A stretch of DNA of 8,264 nucleotides from a virus (lineage: Duplodnaviria; Heunggongvirae; Uroviricota; Caudoviricetes), in the IMG/VR virus record IMGVR_UViG_2713896782_000021, one strand, 5' to 3'. This document shows, piece by piece, positions 1,969 through 8,264 of the stretch; position 1 is the stretch's first letter, and each line of letters opens with the position of its first letter. The notes under the pieces are model-generated. The model was not told the origin of the DNA. It ran no database searches and saw nothing but the letters and a program-made list of their open reading frames with translations. Both the position numbers and the translations under genes were made by a program.

Positions 1969-1982
1969 TATCTGTGCCGGGA

Positions 1983-2315
1983 ATGAAAATGAAAAGAAAT
2001 CTTCCGTTAATTATTTTGTTGTCTTCTCTGGTTATGGGCTGTACGCAACATAAAACAGATATGCCCCGACAGTTGGTTAAGGCATTACCACAATATCCGG
2101 CCTATGCAGCGGCAAATTATATAAAGGGACGGGTTGATGTGAAGTTTGATATTGGTGCTGATGGTACTGTCACCCGAATTGAGTTTATCCGTTCAGAGCC
2201 GCACCATCTGTTTGATGAGCAGGTTGTAAAGGCGATGGCAAAATGGCGATTTGAGAAGGACAGGCCGCGTAAAGGCGTGAAGAAAACGTTTATCTTTAGT
2301 CCTTCTGCACCCTGA
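1983..2315 (+). CDS. Lipoprotein consisting of a TonB C-terminal domain (TonB_C-like moron protein), about 110 aa
   Basis: Signal peptide MKMKRNLPLIILLSSLVMG followed by Cys (lipobox-like VMGC), with Thr at +2. The mature part aligns with the E. coli TonB C-terminal domain from memory: ours PQYPAYAAANYIKGRVDVKFDIGADGTVTRIEFIRSEPHHLFDEQVVKAMAKWRFE versus TonB [56 protein letters not shown]. No TonB N-terminal TM helix and no Pro-rich spacer. Alternative start ATG 1989 has better SD spacing (GGGA 1979-1982). Confidence 0.8.
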   Translation: MKMKRNLPLIILLSSLVMGCTQHKTDMPRQLVKALPQYPAYAAANYIKGRVDVKFDIGADGTVTRIEFIRSEPHHLFDEQVVKAMAKWRFEKDRPRKGVKKTFIFSPSAP

Positions 2316-3906: not shown

Positions 3907-5564
3907 TACCTGTGTGGAGCACGGCCTGCCCGGACTGGGCAGAGCGCCTGAAAAAGGGGCTGTCGATTATTCCGGCTCCGATTTATCCGGAGCAGGCCGC
4001 ACATGCCCTGGCGATTTTTAAACAACTGCGGATTGTGGATGCACCGGGCAGCCCGACGTTCGGGGAGTCCTGCGCACAGTGGGTGTTTGACCTGGTGGCG
4101 GCCCTGTTTGGCTCCTACGATGCGCAGACCGGTGTACGCCATATCAAGGAAGTTTTTATCCTTATCCCCAAGAAAAACAGCAAGTCCACGCTGGCTGCCG
4201 GGATCATGATGACGGCGCTGTTACTGAACTGGCGGCAGGCGGCGGGCTACACCATTCTGGCCCCGACCGTGGAGGTGGCGGCTAACGCCTTCAACCCTGC
4301 CAGGGATATGGTACGACGGGACGATGATCTGGATGACCTCTGTCAGGTGCAGACACATATCCGGACCATCACCCACAGGGTGACGGACACCACCCTGAAG
4401 GTGGTGGCTGCCGATCCGAATACGGTATCCGGTATCAAGTCCGTGGGGACGCTGATTGATGAACTGTGGTTATTTGGCAAGCAGTACAAAGCGGAGGACA
4501 TGTTACGTGAAGCCATAGGCGGCCTTGCCTCCCGCCCGGAAGGGTTTGTGGTGTATACGACCACCCAGTCGAATGAGCCGCCAGCCGGGGTGTTCAGACA
4601 GAAACTGCAGTACGCCCGGGATGTCCGTGACGGCAAAATTCATGATCCGCACTTTCTGCCGGTGATTTTTGAGCATCCTCCTGAAATGGTGGAAAGCGGG
4701 GCTCACCTGCTGATGGAAAACCTCGCCATGGTTAACCCGAATCTCGGTTATTCGGTGGATGAGGCTTTTCTGTACCGGGAGTACCGTAAAGCCCGGGAGG
4801 CTGGTGAGGAAGCATTTCGTGGCTTCATGTCAAAACATGCCAATGTGGAAATTGGTCTTGCCCTGCGTTCTGACCGCTGGGCGGGTGCGGATTTCTGGGA
4901 GCAGCAGGGCAGGCGCGTCAGCCTGGACGATATCCTGCAGCGCGCTGATGTGGTGACGGTGGGGATTGACGGCGGGGGCCTGGATGATCTGCTGGGAATG
5001 TACGTGATTGGCCGTGACAGGGAAACCCGCGAATGGCTGGGCTGGGGCCATGCCTGGGCGCATGAAACCGCGGTGGTCCGACGGAAGAGCGAGGCGTCCC
5101 GGTTTCAGGATCTTGTTGCCTGTGGAGATATGACCATTGTCCGGCGTGTCGGGGATGACACGGCGGAAGTGGCGGAATATGTGCGTCGCATTCATGAGGC
5201 TGAGTTACTGGACCATATCGGTATTGACCCGTCAGGGGTGGGGCAGATTCTGGATTCACTGGCGGAAGCCGGGATCCCCGACGGAATTGTGGTGGGGATA
5301 AGCCAGGGCTGGAAACTGGGCGGGGCCATTAAAACCACCGAGCGCAAACTGGCTGAAGGGGTGCTGGTGCATGGTGACCAGCCCCTGATGGCCTGGTGTG
5401 TCGGCAATGCCCGGGTGGAGCCTAAAGGTAACGCCATTCTTATCACCAAACAGGCCAGTGGACGGGGAAAAATTGACCCGCTGATGGCGCTGTTCAATGC
5501 GGTCTCCCTGATGTCCCTTAACCCGGAACCGAAAAAGAAAGAATATGCGGTTTTTTTCATATAA
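3903..5564 (+). CDS. terL: Terminase large subunit (HK97-type ATPase plus nuclease), 553 aa
   Basis: Deviant Walker A-like LIPKKNSKSTLAAG; Walker B-like LIDELWLFG; ITTAG-like VVYTTTQSNE; MVNPNLGYSV; C-terminal RNaseH-like nuclease motifs VTVGIDGGGLDDLLG and GRGKIDPLMALFNAV. Translationally coupled to terS. Confidence 0.9.
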   Translation: MIPVWSTACPDWAERLKKGLSIIPAPIYPEQAAHALAIFKQLRIVDAPGSPTFGESCAQWVFDLVAALFGSYDAQTGVRHIKEVFILIPKKNSKSTLAAGIMMTALLLNWRQAAGYTILAPTVEVAANAFNPARDMVRRDDDLDDLCQVQTHIRTITHRVTDTTLKVVAADPNTVSGIKSVGTLIDELWLFGKQYKAEDMLREAIGGLASRPEGFVVYTTTQSNEPPAGVFRQKLQYARDVRDGKIHDPHFLPVIFEHPPEMVESGAHLLMENLAMVNPNLGYSVDEAFLYREYRKAREAGEEAFRGFMSKHANVEIGLALRSDRWAGADFWEQQGRRVSLDDILQRADVVTVGIDGGGLDDLLGMYVIGRDRETREWLGWGHAWAHETAVVRRKSEASRFQDLVACGDMTIVRRVGDDTAEVAEYVRRIHEAELLDHIGIDPSGVGQILDSLAEAGIPDGIVVGISQGWKLGGAIKTTERKLAEGVLVHGDQPLMAWCVGNARVEPKGNAILITKQASGRGKIDPLMALFNAVSLMSLNPEPKKKEYAVFFI

Positions 5565-5589
5565 CCCTGTTCACACTGTAACCATCATG

Positions 5590-5610
5590 AACCGCTGCGG
5601 CGGTTTTTTT
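5590..5610 (+). terminator. Candidate intrinsic terminator or attenuator between terL and the head genes
   Basis: Short GC stem ACCGC (5591-5595), loop TGCG, GCGGT (5600-5604), immediately followed by a T7 run then ATTTT. The stem is short (5-6 bp), so it may be a partial terminator that late antitermination reads through. Confidence 0.4.
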
Positions 5611-5627
5611 ATTTTCAGGAGGCTGAT

Positions 5628-7565
5628 GTGACTCTTAAACGGGCCTGTTCCCTGCTGACGGTGAAATCCTTCAGTGAGGATGAACGGGTGATCACCGGGA
5701 TTGCGTCAACGCCTTCTCCGGATCGGGATGGTGACATCCTGGAGCCGGAGGGCGCGGAGTTTGGCAGTGCGATCCCGTTTCTCTGGCAGCATGACCATTC
5801 CCGCCCGGTGGGGCAGTGTACGGTGCGCCGGGTCAGCGAAGGGCTGGAAATCACGGCAACACTGGTGAAGCCCGTACCGGATATGCCGTCGCAACTGGCT
5901 GCCCGGCTGGATGAGGTCTGGGCGGCCATTAAGACCGGGCTGGTCAGGGGGCTGTCCGTGGGCTTCCGTCCCCATGAATACACCTTTCTGGACGGAGGCG
6001 GACTGCATTTTCTGCGCTGGGAACTGATGGAGGTGTCTGCCGTCACCGTGCCCGCGAATGCGGAATGCACCATCCGGACCATTAAATCTTACGACCGCCC
6101 GTTTTCTGCCGCGTCCGGCAACCGGAAACCGGTGGTGAAAATCGCATCTTCTGCCGGCGCTGCGGCACAGTCAACAACCGTTTTTCATAAGGAAAAGACC
6201 ATAATGAATATTGGCGAACAGATTAAAAGTTTTGAAAACAAGCGTGCAGCGCTGGCAGCCTCCCTTGAGGAGGTCATGACCAAAGCCGCAGAGGAAGGGC
6301 GCACGCTGGATGTGGAGGAGGAAGAGCATTACGACAACACCGCAGCGGAAATCCGTCAGGTGGATGCGCACCTGAAGCGCCTGCGTGAACTGGAAGCCGG
6401 TAAGGCCGCCACGGCGCAGCCGGTGAAACAGGCCGGTAACGGGAATGTGGCCGCGGTGGCTTCTGCGCCGGTGATCCGTGTGGAGCAGAAACTGGATAAG
6501 GGGATTGGCTTCGCCCGCTTTGCCAAATCGCTGGCTGCGGCTAAAGGCGTCCGATCTGAAGCCCTGGAAGTGGCCCGTCGTCAGTATCCGGATGACAGTC
6601 GTCTGCATCATGTCCTGAAATCGGCAGTGGGCGCGGGGACCACCACGGATCCGCAGTGGGCAGGCAGCCTGTCTGAATATCAGGAATACGCACAGGACTT
6701 TATTGATTACCTGCGTCCGCAGACCATTATCGGGCGATTTGGTCAGGGCGGGATCCCTGCACTTCGTCAGGTGCCATTCAATATCCGTGTGCACGCCCAG
6801 GTGTCCGGCGGTGCTGCCGGCTGGGTGGGTGAGGGTAAGGCAAAACCCCTGACGAAGTTTGATTTTGAATCCATCACCTTCAGTCATGCGAAGGTGTCGG
6901 CCATTGCGGTACTGACGGAAGAATTGATCCGTTTTTCCAGTCCGGCTGCTGATGCACTGGTCCGTAATGCGCTGGCGGAAGCGGTGGTGGCGCGTCTGGA
7001 TACAGACTTTGTGGACCCGAAAAAAGCCGCAGTGGCAGATGTCTCCCCGGCGTCCATCACCCATGATGTGAAGGGCACGGCATCAACCGGTAACCCGGAT
7101 GCGGATGCCGAGGCTGCGTTTGGACAGTTTGTGGCAGCAAACCTGCAGCCCACCGGTGCGGTCTGGCTGATGTCCAGCACCAATGCCCTGGCACTGTCCA
7201 TGCGTAAAAATGCGCTGGGTCAGAAGGAATACCCGGACATGACCCTGCTGGGTGGCTCCTTCCAGGGGCTGCCGGTGATTGTCTCCCAGTACGTGGGTGA
7301 CCAGCTGGTGCTGGTGAATGCCCCGGATATTTATCTGGCGGATGACGGCGGCGTGGCAGTGGATATGTCCCGCGAGGCATCACTGGAAATGCAGTCTGAG
7401 CCGGGCGGCGACAGTACCACGCCGTCCCCGGTGGAGCTGGTTTCCATGTTCCAGACAGGCAGCGTGGCCATCCGTGCGGAGCGCTGGATCAACTGGCGTC
7501 GTCGCCGTACTGCGGCGGTGGCGGTGATCACCGGAGTGAACTACGGCAGTGCGTCCGGCGGCTGA
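5628..7565 (+). CDS. Prohead protease (S78/HK97 family) fused in frame to major capsid protein (HK97 fold), 645 aa
   Basis: GTG start with AGGAGG 5 nt upstream. N-terminal about 180 aa carry S78 protease motifs (WQHDHSRPVG, GLSVGFRP, ELMEVSAVTVPANAEC). From about residue 193 the sequence is a typical capsid N-terminal delta/coiled-coil region (MNIGEQIKSFENKRAALAASLEEVMTKAAEEGRTLDVEEEE...) followed by the capsid body. No stop codon between the two domains. Confidence 0.85.
   Translation: MTLKRACSLLTVKSFSEDERVITGIASTPSPDRDGDILEPEGAEFGSAIPFLWQHDHSRPVGQCTVRRVSEGLEITATLVKPVPDMPSQLAARLDEVWAAIKTGLVRGLSVGFRPHEYTFLDGGGLHFLRWELMEVSAVTVPANAECTIRTIKSYDRPFSAASGNRKPVVKIASSAGAAAQSTTVFHKEKTIMNIGEQIKSFENKRAALAASLEEVMTKAAEEGRTLDVEEEEHYDNTAAEIRQVDAHLKRLRELEAGKAATAQPVKQAGNGNVAAVASAPVIRVEQKLDKGIGFARFAKSLAAAKGVRSEALEVARRQYPDDSRLHHVLKSAVGAGTTTDPQWAGSLSEYQEYAQDFIDYLRPQTIIGRFGQGGIPALRQVPFNIRVHAQVSGGAAGWVGEGKAKPLTKFDFESITFSHAKVSAIAVLTEELIRFSSPAADALVRNALAEAVVARLDTDFVDPKKAAVADVSPASITHDVKGTASTGNPDADAEAAFGQFVAANLQPTGAVWLMSSTNALALSMRKNALGQKEYPDMTLLGGSFQGLPVIVSQYVGDQLVLVNAPDIYLADDGGVAVDMSREASLEMQSEPGGDSTTPSPVELVSMFQTGSVAIRAERWINWRRRRTAAVAVITGVNYGSASGG
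6204..7565 (+). CDS. Major capsid protein, possible independent product from internal initiation (453 aa)
   Basis: In-frame ATG 6204 preceded by AAGGAA (6189-6194, 9-nt spacer); the encoded N-terminus MNIGEQIKSFENKRAAL is a canonical HK97-type capsid start. Whether it is actually used is an inference. Confidence 0.45.
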   Translation: MNIGEQIKSFENKRAALAASLEEVMTKAAEEGRTLDVEEEEHYDNTAAEIRQVDAHLKRLRELEAGKAATAQPVKQAGNGNVAAVASAPVIRVEQKLDKGIGFARFAKSLAAAKGVRSEALEVARRQYPDDSRLHHVLKSAVGAGTTTDPQWAGSLSEYQEYAQDFIDYLRPQTIIGRFGQGGIPALRQVPFNIRVHAQVSGGAAGWVGEGKAKPLTKFDFESITFSHAKVSAIAVLTEELIRFSSPAADALVRNALAEAVVARLDTDFVDPKKAAVADVSPASITHDVKGTASTGNPDADAEAAFGQFVAANLQPTGAVWLMSSTNALALSMRKNALGQKEYPDMTLLGGSFQGLPVIVSQYVGDQLVLVNAPDIYLADDGGVAVDMSREASLEMQSEPGGDSTTPSPVELVSMFQTGSVAIRAERWINWRRRRTAAVAVITGVNYGSASGG

Positions 7566-7580
7566 GTCTGATAAGGAGGA

Positions 7581-7600
7581 CGGGAGGCGTGCGCCTCCCG
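7581..7600 (+). other. GC-rich hairpin immediately downstream of the capsid stop
   Basis: CGGGAGGC (7581-7588), loop GTGC, GCCTCCCG (7593-7600). No T-tract follows, so more likely an mRNA-stabilising or translational-spacing element than a terminator. Lies between a strong SD (AAGGAGG 7573-7579) and ATG 7610. Confidence 0.4.
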
Positions 7601-7609
7601 TAACAGGTT

Positions 7610-7831
7610 ATGGCAAAGATCCGATATCTGCAGGGCACGCATGATGCCCGGGCCGGGGATATCCGTGATGTGGCACAGCCGTGTGCGGAGGTGCTGGTTC
7701 GCCTGGGAAAGGCGGAGTACATCACGGTGCGACGTCCGGCAGGTCAGAAAAAGAAACGTGATGCGGAGCATGGCGAATGTGGAACCTTTTACGGCGAACC
7801 CGAAAAAACCAGAAATCAGGACGTGACGTAA
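7610..7831 (+). CDS. Hypothetical 73-aa protein between the capsid and portal genes
   Basis: ORF MAKIRYLQGTHDARAGDIRDVAQPCAEVLVRLGKAEYITVRRPAGQ... with SD-hairpin-ATG arrangement upstream. Overlaps the proposed portal start by 55 nt in another frame. No recognisable motif. Confidence 0.25.
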   Translation: MAKIRYLQGTHDARAGDIRDVAQPCAEVLVRLGKAEYITVRRPAGQKKKRDAEHGECGTFYGEPEKTRNQDVT

Positions 7832-8264
7832 GAGAGGCGGGCTGGACCAGCCTGTTTCAGGCGGTGGCTGAGCCCTTTTCCGGCGCCTGGCAGCAGGGCG
7901 TGAAAGCCGATCCTGAAGCCGTCCTCTCCTTTCATGCGGTGTTTGCATGTATTTCGCTGATATCCCAGGATATCGCCAAAATGCGGCTGCGTCTTATGCA
8001 GACGGATGCGCATGGGATACGCAGGGAAACGCGCCGGGGGGATATTGCCCGCCTCTGTCGTCGTCCCAACGCCCAGCAGAACCGCATCCAGTTTTTTGAA
8101 CTGTGGCTGAACGCCAAACTGCGTCATGGCAATACGGTGGTGCTGAAAATCCGTAATGCCCGGGGGCAGATCAAAGAACTGCGTATTCTGGACTGGAGCC
8201 GGGTTGAACCTCTGGTGGCGGATGACGGCGAGGTGTTCTACCGCATCACGCCGGACCGGAACTG
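7777..8264 (+). CDS. Portal protein (HK97-type), 5' portion; continues beyond the window
   Basis: ATG 7777 with GGAG 8 nt upstream. Translation MWNLLRRTRKNQ...AVLSFHAVFACISLISQDIAKM...RRPNAQQNRIQFFELWLNAKLRHGNTVVLKIRNARGQIKELRILDWSRVEPLVADDGEVFYRIT matches the portal N-terminal pattern (aCv..i..., rPN...f.e....LL.GNay..i.r..G.i.eL.pl.p..v......g...Y). Not in the ORF track because it has no stop in the window. Confidence 0.8.
   Translation, partial: MWNLLRRTRKNQKSGRDVREAGWTSLFQAVAEPFSGAWQQGVKADPEAVLSFHAVFACISLISQDIAKMRLRLMQTDAHGIRRETRRGDIARLCRRPNAQQNRIQFFELWLNAKLRHGNTVVLKIRNARGQIKELRILDWSRVEPLVADDGEVFYRITPDRN

Follow-up and report, generated by a model that had tools for sequence, protein, structure and literature searches.

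A prohead protease–capsid gene of long-tailed Shiga toxin-converting phages as a probable nested in-frame gene pair

The protease–capsid gene and its distribution

The virus record IMGVR_UViG_2713896782_000021 (Duplodnaviria; Heunggongvirae; Uroviricota; Caudoviricetes), analyzed here as a stretch of 8,264 nucleotides (the window), harbors an uninterrupted open reading frame (ORF) of 645 codons with a GTG start (5628..7565, plus strand), as seen in the ORF listing of the window. The encoded protein consists of an S78-type prohead protease, a linker, a predicted scaffolding (delta-like) domain and an HK97-fold major capsid protein. An ATG at 6204-6206, preceded by a Shine-Dalgarno (SD) sequence, forms codon 193 of this frame, and a second, shorter frame beginning there shares both the reading frame and the stop codon of the long one. 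Comparison of related sequences indicated that the gene is probably a nested in-frame pair in the manner of lambda C/Nu3, specifying an abundant 48-kDa capsid precursor and a minor 69-kDa protease–capsid fusion.

The gene was found to be 100% identical to that of phage 2851 (Stx2c) and 98% identical to that of BP-4795, and the window is the late region of long-tailed lambdoid phages that convert their hosts to Shiga toxin (Stx) production. Matches were obtained in 93 phage records, mostly of Stx1a-, Stx2a- and Stx2c-converting long-tailed lambdoid phages, and the intact identical 1938-nucleotide ORF was present in 92 phage records, inducible plaque-forming Stx phages among them. Among 5426 complete E. 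coli genomes, 1255 carried the gene at 2977 places, with up to seven copies per genome, and in 1252 the query coverage was at least 80%. Every sampled record from these genomes listed it as one coding sequence (CDS), and the public labels read "putative major head protein/prohead protease" (BP-4795 ORF56, YYZ-2008, WGPS6) or "phage major capsid protein". The protease–capsid fusion is thus real and already known, having been annotated since the BP-4795 record.

Domain organization of the encoded protein

The Pfam model Peptidase_S78 (PF04586) matched residues 48-152 with 34.7 bits (cut-off 21), whereas the TIGR01543 equivalog model scored 49.5 bits, under its cut-off of 59; hence, the protease is a divergent S78 member. 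BLASTP against HK97 gp4 showed 29% identity (E 4e-9). The alignment placed Ser110 opposite Ser114 of gp4 and, in an ungapped stretch, His55 one residue off His65; His65 and Ser114 are the catalytic residues of the HK97 enzyme. His55, Ser110 and Glu135 were invariant across an alignment of 105 homologues. Tertiary structure prediction of the whole protein with AlphaFold2, built from 105 homologues, gave a mean predicted local distance difference test (pLDDT) score of 84, with the protease domain confident over about residues 17-152 and pLDDT of ∼90 at residues 21-150. A Foldseek search with the whole model returned capsid proteins for all of the top 50 matches, with no structural match to the protease fold among them, and a sequence search of the PDB gave weak capsid matches only.

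The capsid part clearly belongs to the HK97 capsid family. Pfam Phage_capsid (PF05065) matched residues 386-635 with 52.7 bits (cut-off 24.2), and TIGR01554, the HK97 capsid model, scored 79.8 bits (cut-off 27.5). The best Foldseek matches were the capsid proteins of Bxb1, HK97 and D3 (E 1e-14 to 1e-10), with that of T5 also among the top. AlphaFold2 predicted the long helices 195-223 and 229-262 (pLDDT ∼95), followed by a small helical module at 293-331 and the shell domain at 345-635. Between protease and capsid lies a linker with pLDDT below 50 over residues 153-190, which was variable and rich in insertions and deletions in the homologue alignment; the GC content of its last 30 nucleotides was 33%, compared with 60% for the whole ORF. 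Met193 stands exactly between this disordered linker and the first scaffold helix. The coordinates of all features are compiled in Table 1.

Table 1. Features of the protease–capsid gene and its flanks in the window.
Feature	Position	Strand	Residues	Basis or property
Full ORF: protease, linker, scaffold (delta) domain and HK97-fold capsid protein	5628..7565	+	1-645	69.0 kDa predicted
S78 (HK97 gp4-like) prohead protease domain	5628..6083	+	1-152	PF04586, BLASTP, alignment, AlphaFold2
Predicted catalytic residue	5790-5792	+	His55	
Predicted catalytic residue	5955-5957	+	Ser110	
Predicted catalytic residue	6030-6032	+	Glu135	
Linker, disordered, hypervariable, A-rich; 3' end carries the putative internal ribosome-binding site	6084..6203	+	153-192	
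Candidate internal SD, TAAGGAA	6188..6194	+		read from sequence; anti-SD pairing
Nested in-frame ORF, capsid precursor, 453 codons	6204..7565	+	193-645	48.2 kDa predicted
Predicted scaffolding (delta-like) region	6204..6617	+	193-330	AlphaFold2; 3' boundary approximate
HK97-fold capsid shell region	6618..7562	+	about 331-645	PF05065, Foldseek
Upstream SD, AGGAGG	5617..5622	+		5 nucleotides ahead of GTG 5628; anti-SD duplex -10.3 kcal/mol
Terminator-like hairpin followed by a T run	5589..5606	+		pattern scan; -10.7 kcal/mol, z -3.25
GC-rich 9-bp hairpin without T run, just 3' of the gene	7580..7601	+		-19.5 kcal/mol, z -2.98

At the putative internal start, the motif AAGGAA (6189-6194) is separated from the ATG by a spacer of 9 nucleotides, and the best pairing with the anti-SD sequence is formed by TAAGGA (6188-6193; 6 bp, -6.2 kcal/mol, aligned spacing of 7 nucleotides). 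No other 60-nucleotide window of the ORF folds as weakly as the one around the ATG, with a folding energy of -5.8 kcal/mol against a mean of -19.1 (standard deviation 4.6) and a GC content of 33% against 60%. A pattern scan of 5400-8264 found no sigma-70-like promoter, and the short product would hence need the same late mRNA as the long one. A second candidate, Met217 (ATG 6276), has GAGGAGG (-8.1 kcal/mol) at a spacing of only 2 nucleotides, and the Glu-Glu codons that form this motif are not conserved; it is probably not a start.

The original prediction, made from the letters of the window alone, had described an uninterrupted 645-codon protease–capsid frame with AAGGAA 9 nucleotides ahead of an in-frame ATG at 6204. 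The frame is borne out by the ORF listing and the Pfam domains, and the motif and its spacing are seen in the raw sequence. Its placing of the capsid N-terminus at this ATG agrees with the AlphaFold2 boundary, with the alignment to TIGR01554, in which profile position 3 falls on residue 12 of the internal product, and with the starts of the split and stand-alone relatives described below. Re-sequencing had also been advised in case a stop or frameshift had been missed; thousands of independent sequences show the ORF intact.

Fused and split relatives

The 90%-identity protein cluster to which the fusion belongs has 9916 members. A word-indexed protein search gave 2494 matches; the best 120 were nearly all of 644-650 residues with both domains and came from Salmonella, Enterobacter, Klebsiella, Serratia, Pantoea and others. 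With an exhaustive search, 12,515 matches were obtained among 50%-identity representatives; most of the best 150 were of 630-690 residues and aligned over nearly the full query, while a handful were stand-alone capsid proteins starting at the equivalent of Met193. Loci with DNA were collected by a scan of viral contigs, which yielded mostly near-identical E. coli copies, followed by a scan of one genome per species and a scan seeded with distant homologues. The resulting 116 loci (32-100% identity) extend from Enterobacterales to Reyranella, Burkholderiaceae and metagenomic phages.

One fused ORF was found at 107 of the 116 loci, in accordance with the genuine protease–capsid fusion that had been predicted; five loci were split, one was decayed and three were ended by the contig edge. 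The fusion is ancient, widespread and the usual state in this clade. In all five split relatives, the capsid gene starts at the same codon as the putative internal start, and in one of them (L133) the sole difference is a TAA placed right before the ATG, in the same frame. The decayed copy, from an Arsenophonus endosymbiont, lies in four pieces.

Larger fusions were also observed. Two 50%-identity clusters (P0123 and P0132; L194 3047-6331) comprise proteins of ∼1090 residues in which an AAA ATPase (PF00004) lies N-terminal to the protease–capsid unit; these genes sit in an ordinary head module (TerL, the gene, a small ORF, portal), and a Met is kept at both domain junctions. Another protein (P0001, 1079 residues), from one E. 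coli contig, has the TerL ATPase domain (PF03354) upstream of a major capsid protein and is probably a frameshift or assembly artefact.

Conservation of the putative internal start

An internal start that is used should keep the marks of an initiation region through selection on the RNA and not on the protein. Every in-frame start-capable codon was scored in 66 non-redundant fused ORFs (32-78% identity). The automatic scan found a start codon at the junction in 64 of the 66 (57 ATG, 7 GTG), and the remaining two, which were misaligned, showed a Met by eye. An SD-like motif was present at this place in every fused relative examined. The mean anti-SD energy at the junction was -7.97 kcal/mol, compared with -2.35 kcal/mol at 2282 other in-frame start-capable codons (Mann-Whitney p 5e-34, a value that overstates the independence of the sequences). 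Energies of -5 kcal/mol or better occurred at 97% of the junctions against 15% of the background, and those of -9 or better, owing to AAGGAGG, GAGGAGG or CAGGAGG, at 39% against 1%. In 30 of 64 ORFs no internal site scored better than the junction, and in 44 it was among the top three; the aligned spacing between SD and start was 3-8 nucleotides in 63 of 64. The site was as strong as the true upstream gene start (mean SD energy of -7.9 vs -7.1 kcal/mol). The 60 nucleotides at the junction folded more weakly than the ORF average in all 64 cases (mean z +1.97, median at the 2nd percentile).

The residues encoded by the SD differ by lineage (KE, KG, KEG, QEG, EEG, LEG, KEA, TEA, REDG, QE) and the codon phase of its GG varies between lineages, while GGAG or AGGA is kept. 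These observations support the view that the SD, the start codon and their unstructured context have been kept at the nucleotide level while the linker protein varied, i.e., that the site is under selection. The dual initiation suggested in the original prediction accordingly gains comparative support from the conserved start codon and SD, the weak mRNA structure and the split relatives.

Codon usage was compared as the fraction of E. coli-type optimal codons. In 15 of 16 non-redundant enterobacterial orthologues this fraction, calculated with an informal list of optimal codons, was larger for the capsid part (0.569) than for the protease part (0.472); with the same list, the window gave 0.566 for the capsid part and 0.456 for the protease part, the latter resembling terL (0.488) and terS (0.415). 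The higher use of optimal codons downstream of the junction indirectly suggests that the capsid alone may be more abundant than the fusion.

Comparison with known systems

Genes 4 and 5 of phage HK97 match the fusion gene in both protein families and in their order, and are bracketed by putative terminators, as the fusion gene is by hairpins. Gene 4 ends with ...TTA GGT AAA TAA, which is followed by TT and the ATG of gene 5, so that the final codons of the protease gene contain the SD of the capsid gene, comparable to the placing of the candidate SD in the fusion gene. Unlike the fusion gene, however, HK97 has a stop codon and a change of frame between the two genes. HK97 gp4 is of 225 residues and its alignment ends at residue 162, leaving ∼60 extra C-terminal residues; the fusion has the 40-residue disordered linker instead. 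Duda et al. reportedly found in 2013 that the C-terminal residues of gp4 target the HK97 protease non-covalently into the prohead. A further deviation is that the portal gene of the fusion gene's phage lies downstream of the capsid gene, and not upstream as in HK97. The scaffold of HK97 is the N-terminal domain of the capsid protein and points into the prohead (PMC10275583).

The lambda genes C (4418-5737) and nu3 (5132-5737) share frame and stop codon and are set apart by an internal start, as would be the case here. The logic would also be shared: the protease belongs to the longer product and assembly to the shorter one, the common C-terminal part draws the protease into the prohead, and the initiation ratio fixes its dose. 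The same nested in-frame arrangement is known from Mu I/Z and herpesvirus UL26/UL26.5. The proteases of lambda, Mu and herpesviruses are, however, S49/ClpP-like or assemblin and not S78, and the nested product of the lambda type is a separate scaffold, whereas that of the fusion gene would be a capsid protein with a built-in scaffold domain.

Effantin et al. reportedly described in 2010 (Virology 402:355) a 'tripartite capsid gene' in the Salmonella phage Gifsy-2. The Gifsy-2 ORF of 696 residues has an N-terminal protease and a C-terminal capsid domain, the same architecture as that of the fusion gene, but its protease is ClpP-type (PF00574) and its capsid domain PF25209/Mu gpT-like, with no sequence similarity to the S78–PF05065 gene. 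In Gifsy-2 (L192 22471-24561), GAGGAG is followed after 9 nucleotides by an ATG at codon 221, just past the ClpP domain (residues 28-202), and this candidate start has an SD energy of -8.8 kcal/mol and lies at a local minimum of mRNA structure (z +1.8). Codon 221 may represent the same nested-start device in a different family.

The original prediction was right that natural protease–capsid fusions are already known: besides the annotated records, NCBIfam includes a family NF045541 'prohead protease/major capsid protein fusion protein', and the passages of PMC5513430 that deal with actinobacteriophage fusions report protease and capsid in one gene, annotated 'major capsid and protease fusion' and called unusual, for Arthrobacter phage clusters AM, AU and AN and for Rhodococcus RRH1, and do not mention internal initiation. 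The present protein scored 46 bits with NF045541 against a cut-off of 525, in the protease region only. The S78 fusion gene hence lies outside both the Gifsy-2 and the NF045541 families.

Two proposed products from one frame

Initiation at GTG 5628 would give the 69-kDa polyprotein of S78 protease, flexible linker, scaffold (delta) domain and HK97-fold capsid protein, and initiation at the internal SD/ATG (6188-6206) the 48-kDa scaffold–capsid precursor alone. The short form would make up most of the prohead shell and the long form a minority of its subunits. Tethered covalently to the inward-pointing scaffold domain, the protease would end up inside the prohead, and the relative rates of the two initiations would determine its dose; the covalent tether would replace the non-covalent C-terminal targeting of the separate HK97 gp4. 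After assembly, the protease would cut away the scaffold domains and itself. We infer that both proteins are made, with the short one predominant, and that the protease is delivered by co-assembly followed by cleavage.

Several points weigh against this reading. The internal SD of the window, at -6.2 kcal/mol, is moderate and takes sixth place among 51 in-frame start-capable codons, which is unremarkable for the window by itself, although across relatives the signal lies far above chance; its spacing in the E. coli lineage is towards the long end. The rise in codon optimality is gradual, without a sharp step, and the linker is rich in AAA, which is counted as optimal. Demands of the protein could in part account for the conserved N-terminal Met ahead of the helix. 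The searchable literature yielded no protein, ribosome-profiling or N-terminal data for the fusion gene. By a rough estimate, 415 protease-plus-scaffold moieties would fill ∼40% of the interior of a T=7 prohead, so that a shell built of fusion alone is sterically possible. Finally, the sequences compared are phylogenetically related; the turnover of linker and SD sequences and the exchanges of ATG and GTG nevertheless show repeated independent maintenance despite the shared ancestry.

It is conceivable, though unlikely, that only the full-length fusion is made, each subunit bringing its own protease into the prohead and then being trimmed, with the internal SD and ATG left over, inactive, from an ancestral two-gene state; this is the main rival reading. 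The strong upstream SD (AGGAGG at -10.3 kcal/mol), the public annotation as one CDS and the roughly estimated room for a 1:1 protease load are in agreement with such a gene, and P2 gpO-type protease–scaffold fusions are said to function without a separate scaffold gene. A relic would, however, be expected to decay, whereas the start codon, SD, spacing and weak structure persist down to 32-40% identity amid a hypervariable linker. Moreover, the SD sequence turns over, ATG and GTG interchange, and codon optimality is unequal between the two parts.

More improbable still is that the purine-rich motif and the Met serve the protein or its elongation, as a cleavage or recognition site or as an SD-like folding pause, and not initiation. 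The motif does lie at a domain boundary within a disordered linker, and a K/E-G dipeptide recurs 3-4 residues ahead of the Met, but GGAG/AGGA is kept even where the encoded residues are different (K, Q, E, L, T, R; G, A, E), and the codon phase of the GG does not hold across lineages. A pause would need neither a start codon at a fixed spacing of 3-8 nucleotides nor a switch from ATG to GTG, and the same motif is the SD of the separate capsid gene in the split relatives. That the single frame is an artefact or pseudogene, arisen by a missed stop or frameshift between two normal genes such as those of HK97 and a few relatives, in a window with masked runs of N elsewhere (1260-1309 and 1525-1613), has a negligible chance of being true, since 92 phage records and 1252 complete E. 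coli genomes carry the ORF without interruption, fused orthologues are found in Enterobacterales and beyond, and true decay looks different, as in the Arsenophonus copy.

The nested in-frame pair is the likely reading, supported by strong comparative evidence. Should the internal start be in use, the gene's chief structural product would be a 453-residue protein which none of the examined records lists, all of them giving the single protein of 645 residues; this would bear on proteomics searches, structure modelling and capsid-size prediction. The gene belongs to long-tailed Stx phages and related prophages, and about one in four of the complete E. coli genomes searched carries it; relatives occur across Proteobacteria. 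Nested initiation would offer a simple account of how a protease lacking the gp4 tail reaches the prohead at a controlled dose, would carry the principle of lambda C/nu3 and herpesvirus UL26/UL26.5 over to phages with the scaffold inside the capsid protein, and suggests how fused and split protease/capsid arrangements interconvert. A strategy already known would thereby reach a new, highly abundant family, which specialists would find sensible and not surprising.

A wider proposal, which we regard as evenly poised between right and wrong, is that internal initiation is a universal selected feature of S78 protease–capsid fusions and possibly also of the Gifsy-2 ClpP–capsid genes. Such "fusions" would really be nested pairs whose two start sites, by their ratio, control how many proteases enter each prohead; the covalent tether would have replaced HK97-type targeting, and fused and split forms would interconvert by gaining or losing one stop codon. 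The searchable literature yielded no experimental work on internal initiation in S78–capsid fusions, and no published description of nested initiation was found for either the S78–capsid or the Gifsy-2-type fusion family. A CBASS preprint considered as a source on the fusion gene concerns a protease–scaffold fusion, a different gene, and the Sf101 paper contained nothing on head genes.

Upstream start, flanking hairpins and neighboring genes

The upstream start is GTG in the lineage of the window and ATG in 58 of 63 relatives. A start-stop mini-ORF, ATG-TGA (5626-5631), overlaps GTG 5628 downstream of the same AGGAGG. As a speculation, the GTG start and the overlapping mini-ORF may lower synthesis of the long form.

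The upstream hairpin sits between terL, which has its stop at 5564, and the fusion gene, and the same GC stem and T run are found just 5' of the SD in many relatives. In the HK97 record, putative terminators are annotated at the equivalent places, before gene 4 and directly after gene 5. The possible roles of the flanking hairpins include stabilization or processing of the mRNA, or a block to read-through in lysogens.

The gene order of the region is antirepressor, Rz-like spanin, an ORF with a TonB_C domain, HNH endonuclease, TerS, TerL, fusion gene, small ORF, portal and head-tail adaptors. The portal gene follows the capsid gene from ∼7777 to the end of the window (L001 11150-13729). It codes for 859 residues in phage 2851 but is present as two ORFs (454 and 461 residues) in BP-4795; the portal is unusually large and may be another fusion. 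The two runs of N, of 50 and 89 bases, lie within the Rz-like spanin region and are masked or unresolved. Situated between the lysis genes and the gene for the HNH endonuclease, the 113-residue ORF at 1974-2315 (plus strand) is an apparent moron; its product combines a lipoprotein-like signal peptide (…LVMGC) with a TonB C-terminal domain (PF03544, 55.9 bits).

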